Assembly (NCBI GenBank): GCA_021796435.1
Contig: JAJYXM010000016.1
Coordinates: forward strand, 310,625-374,624
Direction of reading: 5' to 3'
Source: a bacterium
GTDB lineage: Bacteria; Patescibacteriota; Patescibacteriia; 2-12-FULL-60-25
Length of the DNA: 64,000 nt
Part shown: positions 1 to 29,217 of the stretch, in pieces
Numbering within the stretch: position 1 is the first letter of the stretch
Layout: the number at the start of each line of letters is the position of its first letter
Notes under the pieces: generated by a model
The model's database searches: none
What the model saw: only the letters and a program-made list of their open reading frames with translations
Told to the model about the DNA's origin: nothing
Translations under genes and position numbers: made by a program

Positions 1-1742
1 TCGTTCGACGGCAGGCCGGAGAGCGTCGCTTCGATGAGCGTCCTGCGATCGTTCTCACAGTCGTCGCCCGAAGGGTTTTTTTCGGCGAGAATGACGTTCG
101 CTGCACCCGAGGGGAATAGTCGCGCCAGCATCTGCATGTAGCTGGCTGAACTCGGACGGTAACCGAGATGTCGCAACAGGTGGTCGGCACGGCCGGTAAA
201 GAGGGCGTGCCGGAAAAACAGATTGCGGAATCCGGAGAACTTGCATGGGTATAAGGGTGAGAACAGCGGGTTGCTGCCAAAGACAGAGCGTATCCGGACG
301 TCGTCTTTTGGGTTGAGTAGGGGTTTTTCCACGCGATGTACCAGTAGGATGCGCGACTTGAGTTCGACATCTTCTACGGGATGCGTTCGTGGATGATGTT
401 TGAGCTTCGATAGTTCCGTAGCTTTACGTTTTGCGGAGCGTGCATCCAACAAGTCCCCGGCATCGTATCCTTCCAGGTCTGGAACTAACAGCTCCATAGG
501 CATGACCGGCGATCTGATTAAGTTGCGTGGCAAAATCATGAAGATACGGGCTTCCTTGTCCTCGTCCCGGGTCAGAACACGGCAGAATTTCTGTGTGGCT
601 TTGACCACCGAAAGCGATGGTGCTAGGTCGATGAGGAGTTTGCAGCTTGGCGCATCCCATCCTTCAACCAGAACGTTCACGGATATCAGGGTATCTATGA
701 CGTTTTTGTCGAAGAACTCCAGAATTCGTTCGCGGTCCGACGTATCCCCTAGGATGAGTTTCGGCGGCGGCGCGTGGCGGGGATGATGGGCATTGAGGTA
801 TTTGCTCAAGTCATATGCCTGCTGGCGTGAGGAGCAGGTGATCAGGCAGGGTGTGTGACGATTCTGTTCGTCATAGCGGAACGTCTCGACCGCTTTGAAA
901 AAAGGTGCGGCAGACATGATCCGCCCCAGTGTTTCCTCGTGGTAGTCTCCTTGCTTGAGAGTGACTACCGAACCGTCGACGTCCACTTCAGCTACCCAGA
1001 CGCGTAGAGGGGCCAGAAGCTCGAGGCTTATGGCTTCTTGCAGCGATAGTTCGTGCACTAGAGCGGGAAAGAACCGGCCCAACGCCTTGTGTGCGTCGTA
1101 ATTCGGTGTCGCAGTCAAAGCGAGGCGTAGGCTTTGCGGGTCAAAGGCTGAGCGCAAATAGTCGAGCCGGCAATCCGTCAAAGCATGGTGCGCTTCATCT
1201 GCGATGACTAGCGCTGAACTTCGGATGGCTTGGGGTATGACGCCTGATTTCCAGCGTCGGTTCATCATCTCGTAGGTCGTGATGTTCACTCCGTACGGTA
1301 CGATCTCTTCACGTTCACCGGTGAAGCGCCCGATCAGGACGTCGGGCAACTGTTCGCGAAGACTGCGATAGGCCTGTTCAACAAGCGTCAGCGTGTTGGT
1401 GATGAACGTAGTGGTCAGGCCAGTTCGTGCGATGAGTTGGCCGGCAATCACCGTCTTGCCGGTTCGGGGCGGTAAGATGATGCGCCCGTATGGAGTCGCA
1501 CCATCTTCGTTAACCAAGGAATTGCGTACGAAATCCGATACATCTTCGAAGACGCATGCTTGGATTGGTCGGAGCTCGCGTGTCGAATGAGGAACATCTT
1601 GGGATACAGAATCGTCCAAGCGCATCACCGCACTGACGAGCCGGCTAGGCATCGGACTATCTATGATGTCCGGCAGAAGCCTGGCATCTCCGATACTTGC
1701 ATTCTTAGTCTGCATATCGAGAGCGACAGGTAAGTTGCTCAT
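1..1742 (-). CDS. Superfamily-2 DEAD/DEAH-box helicase (XPB/Rad25-like or type III res-like); partial, 3' end lies beyond window start
   Basis: Minus-strand frame is open from the ATG (cat at 1740-1742) to the window edge. The translation has a Walker A PPRTGKT motif, a DEAH box (VIADEAHHAL) and helicase motifs TATP / VNVLVEGWD. It is not in the ORF track because it has no stop inside the window. Confidence 0.7.
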   Translation of the reverse strand, partial: MSNLPVALDMQTKNASIGDARLLPDIIDSPMPSRLVSAVMRLDDSVSQDVPHSTRELRPIQACVFEDVSDFVRNSLVNEDGATPYGRIILPPRTGKTVIAGQLIARTGLTTTFITNTLTLVEQAYRSLREQLPDVLIGRFTGEREEIVPYGVNITTYEMMNRRWKSGVIPQAIRSSALVIADEAHHALTDCRLDYLRSAFDPQSLRLALTATPNYDAHKALGRFFPALVHELSLQEAISLELLAPLRVWVAEVDVDGSVVTLKQGDYHEETLGRIMSAAPFFKAVETFRYDEQNRHTPCLITCSSRQQAYDLSKYLNAHHPRHAPPPKLILGDTSDRERILEFFDKNVIDTLISVNVLVEGWDAPSCKLLIDLAPSLSVVKATQKFCRVLTRDEDKEARIFMILPRNLIRSPVMPMELLVPDLEGYDAGDLLDARSAKRKATELSKLKHHPRTHPVEDVELKSRILLVHRVEKPLLNPKDDVRIRSVFGSNPLFSPLYPCKFSGFRNLFFRHALFTGRADHLLRHLGYRPSSASYMQMLARLFPSGAANVILAEKNPSGDDCENDRRTLIEATLSGLPSN

Positions 1743-1868
1743 GTCCTAAACCCCTTGTTTGGAGGAAAAGAGCCGTCGCACCATCAGGGCCGATGCAACG
1801 GGCTATTTAATACAAAATTATAGGTTCTGTCAACCTTAGGGTGTAGGTTGCGCCGGCAAGAAAAGGCT

Positions 1869-2534
1869 TTATTGTAACGGTACTATTTTTTTCCAGACCA
1901 GCTCGTGTATCTCGTCGATCGGTAAAAGTTTTCCGTCGGTTGTGCATTCGATGGTCTGCCAGTTCTCGACTTTGTCGATTTCGGGTAATCGGAGATAGGC
2001 GCGTTCGGCGGCACGGAGATGCTCGATGTCTTTTTGATGGATGTCGGTCTTTTCTCCGTCGCGTGAGCGGGAAAGCTCGAAGCCGATATCGGCCGGCACG
2101 TGGAGCAACAGCGTCAGATCCGGTTTGGGTATATTCAGCCAACCGTATTCGACCTCGTTAAGCCAAGCGACGAAGGTGGCTTGTTCGTCAGGATCCGTGA
2201 TCTTTCCGGTCTGGTGGCCTTTGTTAGCCGAGACGTAGCGGTTGGAGATGATGAAAGCACCTCGCTCCAAAGCCGCACGCAAATCCGCGGAGGCATCGAA
2301 ACGATCCAGAGCGAAGAAGAGGGATGCGGCTTTCGGCCCGACGTCATTCACGCCGCCGTAATCGCCGCGCAGATAGCGCTCCACGAAATAGGCGGAAGGT
2401 TTGGTGTACCGGGGAAAGTCGAGGAGTTGGGTTTCGCGGCCCAGGCTGCGCAGGCGCTCAATCAGGCGATTGGCTTGGACGGTCTTACCGGAACCATCGG
2501 TCCCGTCGATGACGATGAATTTTCCGTTTGGCAT
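1869..2534 (-). CDS. tmk: Thymidylate kinase
   Basis: N-terminus FIVIDGTDGSGKTVQ and overall similarity to dTMP kinases; 221 aa. Confidence 0.9.
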   Translation of the reverse strand: MPNGKFIVIDGTDGSGKTVQANRLIERLRSLGRETQLLDFPRYTKPSAYFVERYLRGDYGGVNDVGPKAASLFFALDRFDASADLRAALERGAFIISNRYVSANKGHQTGKITDPDEQATFVAWLNEVEYGWLNIPKPDLTLLLHVPADIGFELSRSRDGEKTDIHQKDIEHLRAAERAYLRLPEIDKVENWQTIECTTDGKLLPIDEIHELVWKKIVPLQ

Positions 2535-2608
2535 AATGCCATGCTACCAGACAAAAAAGAAAAACGCGATCCGTGGTCAGGCGGATCGCGCTGTTCGTCG
2601 GTAGGGGG

Positions 2609-4171
2609 TCAAAAACCCTTAGGTTTCGCCCCGAGTGTGGAGGTCGTGGCGGCGGACATGTCTACGCGGATGTGTTTGGCGATGAGAGTGTGGGTCTCGT
2701 TCACCGTGCGCCAGACTTCTTGGGCGATGCGACGATATGACGGGTGTCCCTTGGAACCGGAGCGCAACTCGATGAAATGGAACAGTTCGCGCACGTTCCA
2801 GCTTACGATGAGGCGCCGGCGGAACGCCATGGGGATGGCGTATTCGGCTTCGACCTCGAGACCTGCTGCGACCAGCTGCTTGTGCAGCTCCTTGACTCGC
2901 GTCATGAGCGCATGGAAATCGTCAGCCAAGCCGATGTCCGTGATCTCTTGCGGCACGTCATAACCCAATTCCACGCCGAGCGTCTGGTTCAGGGGCGAGC
3001 AGATGCGGTGGCGCTGGATGTCGCGCCAGGCCCCGTAGTCGATGACGATCTCGTGGGTGAAGGTGGAGTCTTCGAAGGGGCGCGGAGCCGGATCGTGCGG
3101 GCCGCGATCGCGCAAAGCCGTGCTGATAACGCGGTCGATGATATCGAGCGAACCCTCGCCTTTGAGCGTTGAGAGGATCTCCGCGTATGGTCTGTCGCTG
3201 TAGCCGGCCAAGAGCGCAGCGGCGATGTGCAGCTCGGCGAACGGATCGTCAGCCAGCAGAACGACAGGATTCAGGTTATCCGCTACAGGTCCGGAGACCG
3301 GTACGTCCTGCAGGAGGTCGTTGGCCAGCTCGTGCAGCGTGTCAGGCAGCGAGGAGCGATATTCGTTCCGTCCCGCATACTTGAGCAGCGTGTGGATCGG
3401 CTTGGTCAGGATCGCGACTTCCGGATCGGCGTCCGGACCGCCGTGCAAAGCCTCGATGAGTTCGCGACCGACTTCGTGCGCTTCATCATGCGGACTCGAC
3501 ATGAGTTTTGTGATGATGGTCGCCCAGTTACGCGCATTAGCCGTCACGCCGAAGGAGGCCATGGCGGCCGAGGGCAAAAGATATCGTGCCACGTCGCAGG
3601 AACGTCCCTTGATCTGCGCGGCGTAGGCCCGGTCGGAAATGCCGGTCTCGTTGGGGAATTTTTCCCGCATGTATCCGTCCAAGCGACGCAGGGCTTCTTC
3701 GTACAGCGAATACAGGCCCTCGACCGTGCCGGTATAAGCGTGTCGTAGATGGCTAGCGGCGATCTTGGCCGGCGTGACGCAACGTACGGCGGAGAAGATC
3801 TGGTAGCGCGAACTCTTTTCGGTGAAAGAGCAGAGCCGGCAGTCCTCGATGATCTTGATGACGACCTGCGAGACGTTCTCGAGCGCGACGCTCGGCACGG
3901 CGTGTTCGGCGACCGAACCGTGGCCATAACCCACGACCCATTTCTCATGGAACTCGCTCGCTTTGGCTTCCGTCGCCTCGTAGACGTTCTGGTCAAAAGG
4001 CGTGTCGGTGCGCGAACATTTCGCCAAGGCTACGGCGATGACCTCTGGCGAGGGCGTCAAGAGGACGGTCGTACCGTCGTCGAGCTGGCGCTCCATACGG
4101 TTCAACCAATAGACCCGACGCTTGTTGGGATCCGCGGGCGGGACGAGTTTGGGTTTTGTGGTTTCTGGCAT
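2609..4171 (-). CDS. thyX: Flavin-dependent thymidylate synthase ThyX, tandem-fused (two ThyX-like domains in one 520-aa chain)
   Basis: N-domain GHGSVAEHAVPSVALENVSQVVIKIIEDCRLCSFTEKSSRY aligns to the ThyX GHETPFEH...RQWFRHRIASYNELSGRY region, but RHR is replaced by CRL. C-domain has an intact RDIQRHR motif and ELFHFIELRSGSKGHPSYRRIAQEV, which resembles the ThyX LR...EI...A region. Length is about twice a canonical ThyX. Confidence 0.6.
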   Translation of the reverse strand: MPETTKPKLVPPADPNKRRVYWLNRMERQLDDGTTVLLTPSPEVIAVALAKCSRTDTPFDQNVYEATEAKASEFHEKWVVGYGHGSVAEHAVPSVALENVSQVVIKIIEDCRLCSFTEKSSRYQIFSAVRCVTPAKIAASHLRHAYTGTVEGLYSLYEEALRRLDGYMREKFPNETGISDRAYAAQIKGRSCDVARYLLPSAAMASFGVTANARNWATIITKLMSSPHDEAHEVGRELIEALHGGPDADPEVAILTKPIHTLLKYAGRNEYRSSLPDTLHELANDLLQDVPVSGPVADNLNPVVLLADDPFAELHIAAALLAGYSDRPYAEILSTLKGEGSLDIIDRVISTALRDRGPHDPAPRPFEDSTFTHEIVIDYGAWRDIQRHRICSPLNQTLGVELGYDVPQEITDIGLADDFHALMTRVKELHKQLVAAGLEVEAEYAIPMAFRRRLIVSWNVRELFHFIELRSGSKGHPSYRRIAQEVWRTVNETHTLIAKHIRVDMSAATTSTLGAKPKGF

Positions 4172-4289
4172 AATTCGTTCTCCGTAAATAAAGACTCTCG
4201 TTTTTACACGAAAGCCTTCTGAATGAACGGCTTAACCTTAGCCAGCGGGAGAAGCAGGGTCAAACAACGGTGTCAAGAGAAAGAGGGGT

Positions 4290-4380
4290 GCACCCGTCAG
4301 ATGGTAATTTGTCAGCTGCGGGGCTCGTCTCATATACCTCGAACACATCCTCGCTCGACAAATCACCCTCTGACGGGTGC
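4290..4380. repeat. Long imperfect inverted repeat (about 24-nt arms, about 43-nt spacer) in the thyX 5' region
   Basis: gcacccgtcagatggtaatttgtc ... gacaaatcaccctctgacgggtgc; arms are reverse complements with 2 mismatches. Lies between the dut stop and the thyX start. Confidence 0.5.
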
Positions 4381-4421
4381 TTGAGGAGATGAAAAAAAGT
4401 TGAGGGGCTTTTGAGTATGTG

Positions 4422-4859
4422 CTAGTCGCGGTAGCCGCCTGTGGAGCCGATGCCGCCGCGGTCAGGAGCGTCGGCTGGACCTTCTTCGAGTTCGGCGCGG
4501 ATATAGGGCATGATGATGGCATTGACCAGGCGTTCGCCTTTTTCGATCGTGATAGGCGTGTCTCCCGGGTTGCGCACGATTATCTTTATTTCGTCGTTAG
4601 GTCCGCGATAGTCGCTGTCGATGGTGCCGATGCCATTGGCCAAGACAAGGCCTTTCTTCAGATAAAGACTTGAACGGGAGGTCAAAAACAATACATAGCC
4701 ATCAGGCATACCGAAACCAAGGCCGGTCGGTACAGGAAGAGCTTGTTTGGGCTGTACGATTACTTGTTCGGCCGCCGCCAGATCAAAACCAGCCGACCCT
4801 GTAGTCTTGTATTCGGGTAAGGCGACATCTCCGCGAAGACGGGTGATCCTCACCTTCAT
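4422..4859 (-). CDS. dut: dUTP diphosphatase
   Basis: Motifs AGFDL, GIGTIDSDYRG and GERLVNAI; 145 aa. Confidence 0.9.
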   Translation of the reverse strand: MKVRITRLRGDVALPEYKTTGSAGFDLAAAEQVIVQPKQALPVPTGLGFGMPDGYVLFLTSRSSLYLKKGLVLANGIGTIDSDYRGPNDEIKIIVRNPGDTPITIEKGERLVNAIIMPYIRAELEEGPADAPDRGGIGSTGGYRD

Positions 4860-5422
4860 ACTTTTGGTTTCGCGCCAAGCTCGACCATCATCGCGTCGAG
4901 CTGTTTGAGTAAGGCATCCAAATCCCCGGAGTTGTCCATTCTATATACTGCGCGTTCCATGACAGGCGGAATTGTCACTTCGGTAGGAGCTCGTTCTTCG
5001 GCCAGGAATTGTTCCCAGGTCATGTCTTTTTCGCCTGCGCGTTCGCCGCGGTTCATCAGGCGTCGATAACGGATTTCGGGAGGTGCATCGATGGCGACGA
5101 GCTTGAATTGCGATAGCGGTTCGAGTCCGGAAAGGTCGTTTATCCGGCGAACGCCGTCGATGACCACGATATCGGCTGCGTCGCTCAAAGCGTCGCTTTC
5201 CACTACATGAGCCAGGATATCCTCACCGAAACCGTGGCGCAGTGTCTCGGAAAGCGTAATCAGGTTTTCCCGGCTGATGGGCAGGGAGAGCCGTTTCAGG
5301 ATATCGCTAAGGACGGTGCTGAAGCGGAACATCGATGCCCCATATTTTTCCTTGATGTACTTCGTGGCGGTACCTTTGCCTGCTCCCGGCATGCCGACGA
5401 AGCCTAAAATTATTTTTGCCAT
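4856..5422 (-). CDS. Nucleoside-monophosphate kinase, adenylate-kinase family (short LID); possibly a dNMP kinase
   Basis: P-loop GMPGAGKGT, a DGVRR motif (compare Adk DGFPR) and a short LID region. The ATGA overlap with dut indicates translational coupling. Confidence 0.55.
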   Translation of the reverse strand: MAKIILGFVGMPGAGKGTATKYIKEKYGASMFRFSTVLSDILKRLSLPISRENLITLSETLRHGFGEDILAHVVESDALSDAADIVVIDGVRRINDLSGLEPLSQFKLVAIDAPPEIRYRRLMNRGERAGEKDMTWEQFLAEERAPTEVTIPPVMERAVYRMDNSGDLDALLKQLDAMMVELGAKPKV

Positions 5423-6579: not shown

Positions 6580-7224
6580 CTACGAGGAATGGATGTAGGC
6601 GAGGACTTCGTCGTGTTTTTCCGCGGAGATCTTGCCCTGTTCCACGTAGAACGCGAGCAGCTCGGTGAGGGTGAAGACGGCGTGGAGCTGGTAGCCGTAT
6701 TGCGCCAGCTGTTCCCTTCCGCCCTGCTCGCGGTCGACGAGCACGACGACGTCCTTGACCTTCATATCTGCGGCTTCGAGCGCACGGATGCATTCGATCT
6801 TGCTGTCGGCCTGGGTGATCAAGTCGTCGATGACCAGGGTCGTGGCGCCCTTTGGCCAGGTGCCCAGAGCGACTTCCGCGATCCTGCGCTTGCCGTCCTC
6901 CTCGACCTTGTTGAGCATGATGAGTCCGTGCTCGGTTCCTTGCACGAAGCTGTGCGCGAACGGATTCCCCGCTTTGGGGACACCGGCGACGGCTGAGAAT
7001 TCCAGCCCAGCGTCTTCACAGACACGTCGCATGCACTGCGCGACGGCGCTTACGTGGATCGGTTGGAGCGGCCCGTTCTTGTTGTCGGGCGTACGCAGGT
7101 TGAGGTAGATGGGCGAGAGCGGCGCATTAGGGTTCTTCTCGTGCAGCTTGAGCTTGAAGGCGCCGAACTGGGCCGAGCCGATGTCATACAGCGAGAGGGC
7201 GAGCATTTTTGCGAAACTATCCAT
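6580..7224 (-). CDS. pyrE: Orotate phosphoribosyltransferase
   Basis: OPRT family similarity from MDSFAKMLALSLYDIGSAQFGAFKLKL onward, with the PRPP-binding VIDDLITQADS motif. The track ORF carries a spurious Arg-rich 134-aa N-terminal extension. The real ATG overlaps the pyrF TGA (TGATG). Confidence 0.85.
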   Translation of the reverse strand: MDSFAKMLALSLYDIGSAQFGAFKLKLHEKNPNAPLSPIYLNLRTPDNKNGPLQPIHVSAVAQCMRRVCEDAGLEFSAVAGVPKAGNPFAHSFVQGTEHGLIMLNKVEEDGKRRIAEVALGTWPKGATTLVIDDLITQADSKIECIRALEAADMKVKDVVVLVDREQGGREQLAQYGYQLHAVFTLTELLAFYVEQGKISAEKHDEVLAYIHSS

Positions 7225-7997
7225 CACCCCACCTCCATCAGGGCTTCGGCGATTTCGTCGACGATGCGTTCGGTGGCAGCGATCGGATCGGGATCGTCGG
7301 TGATCGGACGGCCGATGACCATCTTGTCGGCGCCGAGCCGGATGGCTTCGCTTGGCGTCAAGATGCGTTTCTGGTCGCCCTGGGCGCTTCCCTCGGGCCT
7401 CACGCCAGGGGTGATCTTGACGAGCTTCTCGAGTTCGGGGCGTTTGCCGATGATCTCGAGTTCCTGAGGCGAGCAGACGATGCCGGCGCAGCCAGCCAGC
7501 ACGGCGTTGCGCGCGAACTGAAGCACCTTGGCTTTGCTGGGCGCGTTGAAGGTCAGGTTGGCCTGCTCTTCGCTCAGGCTGGTCAGGACTGTCACGGCCA
7601 GAATGCCGCAGTCGGTATCCTTGCATGCCTTGACCGCCGCGATCATGCCGTCGATCTCGGCCGAGGCGTGGACGGTCAGATACTTGCTCTTCATGCGCGC
7701 CAGGTTGAGAGCTGCTCTGCCCATGGTGTTGGAGGTGTCGTGCAGCTTCCAGTCGTCCATGATCTTGCCGTTCAGCATCATGAACAGCGCTTTGTAAGCG
7801 CCGTGCAAGCCTGCCAGCTCGGCGCCATCCGTGAGGATGAAGTCCATGGCGATCGACGTCCAGAACTCGAGGCCGAGCTTGACCATGTCCACATGATCGA
7901 TCAAGGGCTGGACCAGGTCGAGCGCTTTTCCTGGATCGCTTACGTCGACGGCGAGGATGATGCGGCTTCGTGCAGTCTTCTTGATATCGGTCAGCAT
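7224..7997 (-). CDS. pyrF: Orotidine-5'-phosphate decarboxylase
   Basis: ILAVDV...VKLG...LHDT motifs of OMP decarboxylase; 257 aa. Confidence 0.85.
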   Translation of the reverse strand: MLTDIKKTARSRIILAVDVSDPGKALDLVQPLIDHVDMVKLGLEFWTSIAMDFILTDGAELAGLHGAYKALFMMLNGKIMDDWKLHDTSNTMGRAALNLARMKSKYLTVHASAEIDGMIAAVKACKDTDCGILAVTVLTSLSEEQANLTFNAPSKAKVLQFARNAVLAGCAGIVCSPQELEIIGKRPELEKLVKITPGVRPEGSAQGDQKRILTPSEAIRLGADKMVIGRPITDDPDPIAATERIVDEIAEALMEVG

Positions 7998-8115: not shown

Positions 8116-8445
8116 TTAGCGCGAACCCCCAGACCCCTTGTGCCATTTTAAGCCGGGCTTTTCAGAATTCAATAGAAAGATTTTCTTCTTGGTTCCGCGG
8201 TTGTAGCCGCCGGTCGTTCCGTCGGAACGGACGACGCGGTGACAGGGGATAGCCGGGTCGAAATTCTTATGCAAAATGTTGCCGACGGCACGATAAGCGT
8301 TCGGTCGTCCGGCGAGTGTGGCGACTTGTCTGTAAGTCAGTATTTTTCCGCGAGGTATTTTCGCGACAACCGAAAAGACAAGGCGCGTGAAATCAGTCGG
8401 TCTAATCGACTTTGATCTCGGCATAGGTACCGCCCTTCTCGTCAT
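8116..8445 (-). CDS. ogt: Methylated-DNA-protein-cysteine methyltransferase (single-domain MGMT/Ogt)
   Basis: TYRQVATLAGRPNAYRAVGNIL...IPCHRVV active-site region; 109 aa, no N-terminal domain. Confidence 0.75.
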   Translation of the reverse strand: MTRRAVPMPRSKSIRPTDFTRLVFSVVAKIPRGKILTYRQVATLAGRPNAYRAVGNILHKNFDPAIPCHRVVRSDGTTGGYNRGTKKKIFLLNSEKPGLKWHKGSGGSR

Positions 8446-29135: not shown

Positions 29136-29217
29136 GTTCCGGACGTTTAGCTTCACCCTGCGCAAAAGCTACGGGTGACAGGACGCCGAACGTAATCAGT
29201 TCAGGACGTTTAGCTCA
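29136..29217 (+). repeat. Duplicated tRNA-Val 5' end with flank (gttcCggacgtttagctTca at 29136-29155 versus gttcAggacgtttagctca at 29199-29217)
   Basis: About 19/20-nt direct repeat; the upstream copy is not followed by the rest of a tRNA. Confidence 0.6.

Follow-up and report, generated by a model that had tools for sequence, protein, structure and literature searches.

We analysed a 64,000-nucleotide stretch of a contig from a bacterium of the Patescibacteriota, here called the window, which carries a double-length gene for the flavin-dependent thymidylate synthase ThyX. The 520-amino acid product contains two ThyX domains, and active site residues have been lost from the two domains reciprocally. 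The N-terminal half keeps the deoxyuridine monophosphate (dUMP) loop residues, and the equivalent of R147 in Thermotoga maritima ThyX. The C-terminal half keeps the RHR triad and the equivalent of R174. With a probability of roughly 0.7, we take the protein to be a tandem-domain ThyX that arose by duplication and reciprocal loss, and whose chains pair into a pseudo-tetramer with two active sites. The gene and its parts are as follows.

2609 to 4171, minus strand: two-domain thyX open reading frame (ORF), 520 amino acids plus stop codon (ORF list, Pfam Thy1)
3452 to 4057, minus strand: N-terminal Thy1 domain, amino acids 39–240, the ‘dUMP-loop’ half (Pfam, profile match, hhalign)
3236 to 3451, minus strand: inter-domain linker, amino acids 241–312, partly helical in the AlphaFold 2 (AF2) model
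2693 to 3235, minus strand: C-terminal Thy1 domain, amino acids 313–493, the ‘flavin-holding’ half (Pfam, profile matches, hhalign)

The ORF starts with ATG, and the sequence GGAG is found 8 nt 5' of this codon. The product differs from database protein P0001 at a single position (I446V). The Pfam Thy1 model (PF02511; gathering score cut-off 24.8 bits) matched the whole protein in two stretches with 157.4 bits. The protein was also cut at residue 271/272 and the halves were scanned singly. The N half (residues 1–271) scored 90.8 bits over residues 39–240 (E-value 1.3e-25) and the C half (residues 272–520) scored 70.5 bits over residues 313–493 (E-value 2.1e-19). Half-specific profiles, each built from 13 sequences of the half concerned, were searched against solved chains in the PDB. 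The N-half profile matched Mycobacterium tuberculosis ThyX (3gwc; best E-value 2e-11), and the C-half profile matched ThyX chains of Helicobacter pylori, M. tuberculosis and T. maritima (best E-value 1.2e-7). The T. maritima sequence used for numbering is the same as PDB 1KQ4/1O26 across residues 1–220. Using hhalign, the N and C halves aligned to it with 92% and 93% probability, respectively, over nearly the full length. An earlier note on this DNA, made from the letters and their translations, had read two ThyX-like halves in the ORF. That reading stands; each half passes PF02511 alone and matches solved ThyX, and the N half is not an unrelated domain.

Compared directly, the two halves share 18% identity over the region aligned by hhalign, a weakly significant match (E-value 2.4e-4). 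Hence, an internal duplication is supported because each half matches ThyX, not because the halves match each other. The predicted model has the ThyX three-dimensional fold in at least one domain. Helices are predicted in the linker of the AF2 model at residues 250–256 and 270–287, with a predicted local distance difference test score for the block of about 86–93.

The ThyX signature, R-H-R-x7-S-x-R(-Y), is intact in neither domain. The N half has D-C-R-x7-S-x-R-Y, and the C half has R-H-R without S-x-R-Y. The full motif is obtained only from the halves combined. In hhalign alignments, the T. maritima residues correspond to those of the window protein as follows.

H53: H84 in the N half, H359 in the C half
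T55: S86 in the N half, P361 (lost) in the C half
E58: E89 in the N half, E367 in the C half
H59: H90 in the N half, D368 in the C half (mostly H in close relatives, variable in broader sets)
Q75: I107 in the N half, D384 in the C half
R78: D110 (lost) in the N half, R387 in the C half
H79: C111 (a variable position) in the N half, H388 in the C half
R80: R112 in the N half, R389 in the C half
E86: E118 in the N half, N395 (lost) in the C half
S88: S120 in the N half, L398 (lost) in the C half
R90: R122 in the N half, deleted in the C half
Y91: Y123 in the N half, deleted in the C half
R147: R196 in the N half, Y444 in the C half
N163 and R165: N212 and R214 in the N half, N459 and R461 in the C half
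R174: K222 in the N half, R470 in the C half

At least one half fills each position of the set that handles flavin adenine dinucleotide (FAD) and dUMP (H53, T/S55, E58, R78, H79, R80, E86 and S88). The same is true of R90, Y91, R147, N163, R165 and R174. The motifs concerned lie at the following positions.

3803 to 3844, minus strand: N-half motif D110-C111-R112 ... E118-K-S120-S-R122-Y123 (alignments)
3572 to 3589, minus strand: N-half ARYLLP, with R196 equivalent to R147 (hhalign)
3497 to 3511, minus strand: N-half TKLMS, with K222 at the position of catalytic R174, an Arg to Lys change (hhalign, one-residue gap)
3005 to 3013, minus strand: C-half R387-H388-R389, the RHR triad intact (hhalign)
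2831 to 2845, minus strand: C-half EYAIP, with Y444 replacing R147 (hhalign)
2756 to 2779, minus strand: C-half HFIELRSG, with R470 equivalent to catalytic R174 (hhalign)

In the C half, RHR is followed by ICSPLNQTLG, without S88, R90 or Y91. In canonical ThyX the spacing from R80 to S88 is 8 residues, and the spacing from R112 to S120 is also 8 here. Three alignments without gaps, from HMMER and hhalign, place R78-H79-R80 on D110-C111-R112. Hence, the triad of the N half is DCR, not CRL, and the third arginine is kept. The earlier note had RHR replaced by CRL in the first half. It was right that R78 and H79 are lost; its register was wrong by one residue, and the last arginine of the triad is retained and invariant. 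The strings that it quoted (GYGHGSVAEH, EDCRLCSFTEKSSRY, WRDIQRHR and ELFHFIELRSG) are all present in the protein. Its statements that the first half retains the S-x-R-Y part, and that the second half has an intact RDIQRHR, agree with our alignments. Thus, S120, R122 and Y123 are present and conserved, and R387-H388-R389 align with R78-H79-R80. The loss of S-x-R-Y from the second half, and the tyrosine at its R147 position, were absent from that account.

Conservation of the partition was measured in three sets of proteins. Set 1 (n = 80) consists of the window protein and 79 proteins translated from GTDB species genomes. These 80 are the best of at least 595 loci from a genome scan, and the neighbourhood counts given below rest on the same loci. 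Set 1 was retrieved by the N-half patterns TEKSSRYQ and WVVGYGHxS, so invariance at those positions is partly ascertainment. Set 2 (n = 142) contains representatives of 50%-identity clusters from an unfiltered HMMER profile search, and set 3 (n = 118) contains proteins of a Myxococcota/Dependentiae clade. Sets 2 and 3 are free of the N-half-pattern bias. S120 and R122 are present in 100% of all three sets, as are R387 and R389, and Y123 in 96–100%. The R147 equivalent, R196, is found in 80/80, 141/142 and 118/118 proteins. The R174 equivalent, R470, is found in 79/80 (the remaining one has a gap), 142/142 and 118/118. Overall, the filled FAD and dUMP positions are 94–100% conserved. The replacements are also conserved. 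D110, at the R78 position, is present in 75–100% of the three sets, and D384, at the Q75 position of the C half, in 87–100%. K222 occurs in 78/80, 121/142 and 118/118 proteins, and Y444 in 80/80, 137/142 and 118/118. R112 is almost invariant among cellular members. We define the two-domain subfamily by a length of ~460–550 amino acids, an N half with D/x-x-R, E-x-S-x-R-Y and the R147 equivalent, and a C half with RHR, tyrosine at the R147 position and the R174 equivalent. The window protein has all of these features and matches the family consensus at all positions.

The partition can be compared with the active site of canonical homotetrameric ThyX, also called flavin-dependent thymidylate synthase (FDTS), as in T. 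maritima TM0449 (PDB 1O26/4GT9) and M. tuberculosis Rv2754c (PDB 2AF6/3GWC). Canonical ThyX has 220–250 amino acids, with all residues in every subunit, and forms four equivalent sites, each from three identical subunits (PMC6514825). In the M. tuberculosis enzyme, subunit A of a site provides R199 (T. maritima R174) and the RHR triad, residues 95–97, which binds the phosphates and ribityl of FAD; R95 additionally contacts the isoalloxazine ring and dUMP (PMC6514825). Subunit B provides S71 and R190 (T. maritima T55 and R165), and subunit C provides S105, R107 and the lid residue Y108 (T. maritima S88, R90 and Y91) (PMC6514825). In T. maritima, R174 activates dUMP, and S88, R90 and Y91 assist methylene transfer (PMC8316439).

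The C half of the window protein retains exactly the subunit A residues. The N half retains exactly the subunit C residues and both subunit B residues. Since RHR and R174 reach one site from a different subunit than S88, R90 and Y91, one N and one C domain can complete one site. Given the partition, the reciprocal combination cannot form a complete site. If N domains also take the B role, every loss from the C half is accounted for. Unlike canonical ThyX, the window protein thus has two diverged copies in one chain, with complementary subsets of residues. Hence, two sites per four domains are predicted, versus four in canonical ThyX.

The protein would therefore be a tandem-domain thymidylate synthase, producing thymidine monophosphate (dTMP) from dUMP with methylenetetrahydrofolate, FAD and NAD(P)H. 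The ThyX fold may have been duplicated internally long ago, after which the two copies lost active site residues reciprocally. The N domain would give the substrate loop (E118, S120, R122 and Y123) and R196. The C domain would give the clamp for the flavin phosphates and isoalloxazine, R387-H388-R389, and dUMP-activating R470. Two chains are predicted to pair as a homodimer mimicking the 222 tetramer. Of the sites formed by its four domains, two would be complete and two incomplete, and FAD would be loaded at about one per 520-amino acid chain. We infer the pairing of two fusion chains, the stoichiometry of two sites and the catalytic activity itself. The fused pseudo-dimer with specialised halves that the earlier note had envisaged is supported by the residue partition and its conservation; the specialisation is stronger, and more symmetrical, than it had claimed.

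Several observations weigh against the tandem-domain explanation. First, the NCBIfam thyX equivalog TIGR02170, a model made for single-domain ThyX, matched the protein in two stretches with 82.5 bits, and so missed its cut-off of 87.9. Second, N163 and R165 have equivalents in both halves, leaving the role of the third (B) subunit ambiguous. Third, the accessible ThyX literature does not state which subunit provides R147. Finally, the ‘degenerate’ positions that line the incomplete pocket (D110, R112 and K222 of the N half, D384 and Y444 of the C half) are near-invariant in cellular members, bacterial and archaeal. Simple decay of a dead site does not predict this, and the second pocket may thus retain some role. 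A tentative and rather doubtful extension is that the incomplete pocket pair has been repurposed and is now dedicated to binding NAD(P)H, folate or a regulatory nucleotide. If so, reduction and methylation would take place at separate stations, or the enzyme would be under allosteric control, unlike canonical ThyX.

The fusion of pseudo-enzyme domains to active paralogues is common. One half could accordingly be catalytic and the other a dead structural or regulatory domain, with the active half forming homo-oligomeric sites in, for example, an assembly of four chains and eight domains. We regard this as unlikely because neither half is complete. The C half is without S88, R90, Y91 and R147; the N half is without R78 and H79, and has lysine in place of R174. 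In T. maritima, the S88A, R90A and Y91A substitutions greatly lower the rate constant of the dUMP-triggered step (PMC8316439). Furthermore, those essential residues that each half still has are strictly conserved, which is unexpected for a dead domain.

The genes around thyX bear on another alternative. The features concerned are listed here.

4856 to 5422, minus strand: AAA_17-family nucleotide kinase, 188 amino acids (Pfam AAA_17, 52.2 bits)
4422 to 4859, minus strand: dut, encoding dUTPase, upstream of thyX (Pfam dUTPase, 74.5 bits; NCBIfam PRK00601, 115.5 bits against a cut-off of 103)
2563 to 2592, minus strand: terminator-like hairpin, an 11-bp stem then TTTCTTTTTT, between the thyX stop and the tmk start (consensus scan only)
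1869 to 2534, minus strand: tmk, encoding dTMP kinase, downstream of thyX (Pfam Thymidylate_kin, 61 bits)

The order on the minus strand is kinase, dut, a 250-bp gap, thyX, hairpin and tmk, and the end of the kinase gene shares 4 nt with the beginning of dut (ATGA). As the earlier note had it, thyX lies between dut and tmk; both genes flank it on the same strand and are identified by Pfam. The gene order matches the pathway from deoxyuridine triphosphate through dUMP and dTMP to thymidine diphosphate, with dut supplying dUMP and tmk consuming dTMP. Among the 80 related loci, dut is 5' of thyX on the same strand in 24 and the AAA_17 kinase in 26. The order kinase-dut-thyX occurs in about 25, and tmk adjoins thyX in about 16. 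The recurrence of the kinase 5' of dut-thyX (26/80) makes it a candidate (deoxy)nucleotide kinase of the thymidine triphosphate pathway. Natural fusions to the two-domain ThyX are also found. P0021 (671 amino acids) and P0247 (703 amino acids) have dUTPase at the N terminus, and P0148 (741 amino acids) has thymidylate kinase there. In phage Tunturi_5, the two-domain ThyX gene adjoins one for deoxycytidine monophosphate (dCMP) deaminase.

These associations argue for a genuine thymidylate synthase. The alternative is a neofunctionalised paralogue: a methylase or hydroxymethylase acting on UMP/dUMP or dCMP, comparable to PolB of the polyoxin pathway, or some other flavin- or folate-dependent pyrimidine modifier. 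PolB, the UMP/dUMP methylase of Streptomyces cacaoi (PDB 4P5A), is a single-domain protein from a secondary-metabolite context that accepts UMP; nothing at the thyX locus here points to such a role. All known residues for dUMP binding, FAD binding and dUMP activation are present once per pair of N and C halves. The gene has dut and tmk as neighbours, is fused to them in some relatives, and is found in lineages with reduced genomes (Patescibacteria, DPANN and Dependentiae), where thymidylate synthase is needed. A changed activity is hence improbable. The linkage, the fusions and the phage dCMP deaminase neighbour would together support thymidylate synthase activity, and would disfavour one like that of PolB.

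Some minor features of the cluster were also recorded. The best NCBIfam match of the 188-amino acid kinase (AAA_17/AAA_18 P-loop) is PRK08356, ‘hypothetical protein’, well under cut-off. Long variants of two-domain ThyX (P0226, P0236, P0242 and P0353; 684–782 amino acids) have N-terminal extensions of ~240–350 amino acids without a Pfam match. A second terminator-like hairpin, from a consensus scan only, lies directly after tmk (1773–1801, minus strand). The hairpins suggest that a transcription unit ends with thyX, and that tmk has its own transcript or is reached by read-through. The gap between dut and thyX (4172–4421) is 250 bp, unusually long for an otherwise tightly packed cluster. A sigma-70 promoter scan of this gap scored none above background level; a TTGACA hexamer is present near 4271–4276 on the minus strand. 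An Rfam scan found nothing near the thyX locus, and only a tRNA at 29204.

The same architecture is widespread. A word-indexed search found 1,980 proteins at an E-value of 0.001 or less among 8,000 candidates scored, and nearly all of the best 120 were 470–550 amino acids long. In the genome scan, two-domain ThyX was present in at least 595 GTDB species genomes. An exhaustive profile search returned 8,152 50%-identity clusters at an E-value of 0.001 or less, and at least 1,423 at 1e-30 or less; the best 150 clusters were two-domain proteins or fragments of them. The earlier note implied that the fusion was rare and proposed looking for it in relatives. The implied rarity does not survive these counts, which put the fusion in well over a thousand relatives. 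It is hence conserved across the family and not peculiar to this locus. Hosts include many classes of Patescibacteria and DPANN archaea (Aenigmarchaeota, Woesearchaeota, Iainarchaeota and Nanoarchaeota). Further hosts are Armatimonadota, Anaerolineae, Methylomirabilota, Entotheonella, Dependentiae and the cultured myxobacteria Chondromyces crocatus, Polyangium aurulentum and Minicystis rosea. In databases, homologues are named ‘FAD-dependent thymidylate synthase’ or ‘thymidylate synthase ThyX’. The idea that two neighbouring thyX genes were merged into the long ORF by an assembly error or a frameshift has only the unusual length in its favour, and can be rejected, since the architecture is uninterrupted throughout the family, including in complete genomes of cultured myxobacteria and in phage isolates.

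Two-domain ThyX genes are also carried by large phages. In 14 phage records the match spans at least 80% of the query; the product bears no more than the label ‘hypothetical protein’ in some of them. Three were aligned.

L081, 238 to 1794: Tunturiibacter phage Tunturi_5 gp50, two-domain ThyX homologue
L082, 190 to 1665: Microcystis phage Ma-LMM01 gp020, two-domain ThyX homologue
L083, 220 to 1605: Vibrio jumbo phage vB_VmeM-Yong MS32, two-domain ThyX homologue

At 22–28% identity, the core split between N and C halves is kept in all three. The N halves have no RHR, but do have S-T-R-Y and the R147 equivalent. The C halves (3/3) have RHR, tyrosine at the R147 position and the R174 equivalent. 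The equivalents of R112, K222 and R165 are lost.

The window protein has the same architecture, length and residue partition as the two-domain ThyX of other lineages and phages. It differs from them in sequence divergence only, with identity from 65% down to about 22%. Hence, the thyX gene here is an ordinary orthologue in a very large two-domain class, which is annotated but structurally uncharacterised. No solved structure of the class appeared in the PDB profile searches, and a full-text literature search found no open-access account of the two-domain architecture or the residue partition. The reciprocal division of the composite site is possibly an undescribed feature of the whole class, and not of this locus. 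A composite site split between fused paralogous domains may never have been described for ThyX, and may be the main ThyX form in bacteria of the candidate phyla radiation and DPANN archaea.

The ThyX of Chlamydia trachomatis (CT632), at ~529 amino acids, is reportedly twice the usual size, with FAD-dependent thymidylate synthase activity said to have been described by Griffin et al. in 2005. This double-length enzyme may also have been reported as a tetramer, which would favour a single catalytic half. C. trachomatis ThyX is active in NADPH-oxidation assays (PMC3498832). There was no chlamydial sequence among the best 80 of the at least 595 loci, and cluster look-ups gave names from Armatimonadota and Dependentiae only. 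In 2004, Leduc et al. reportedly restored activity by co-expressing differently inactivated ThyX subunits, the sites being built from several subunits. Those heterotetramers were made in the laboratory by mixing point mutants of a single gene, whereas complementation in the window protein would be fixed by duplication, fusion and reciprocal loss. The natural two-domain fusion would exploit the same principle of multi-subunit sites.

In many organisms with reduced genomes, thymidylate can be made only through ThyX, which is also an antibiotic target. To our knowledge, all mechanistic and structural work on ThyX has used single-domain homotetramers. The two-domain class offers a natural experiment on the contribution of each subunit to ThyX catalysis. 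It also bears on the evolution of homo-oligomeric enzymes into obligate pseudo-hetero-oligomers. For annotation, a gene with a ‘broken’ RHR motif and a TIGR02170 score under threshold should not be read as a pseudogene on these grounds.

Other genes of the window lie beside the cluster. Downstream of tmk, an ORF for a ResIII/DEAD-type superfamily 2 helicase (3–1745, minus strand; at least 581 amino acids) runs off the window start. On the other side are genes for ribosomal protein L1 (5603–6292) and a protein with an MGMT-type DNA-binding domain (8116–8445). Pyrimidine genes also adjoin the cluster (6580–7997, minus strand). They comprise an orotidine monophosphate decarboxylase gene (7224–7997, 132 bits) and a phosphoribosyltransferase gene, probably pyrE-like. 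The latter is listed as an ORF of 348 amino acids. Its real start is likely near 7200, because the N-terminal extension is Arg-rich, out of character and overlaps the next gene. The guanine plus cytosine (GC) content of the window is about 0.49–0.60. GC skew is positive in every 2-kb bin over the 64 kb, and the cumulative skew climbs monotonically to 3.23, consistent with the whole window lying inside one replichore.

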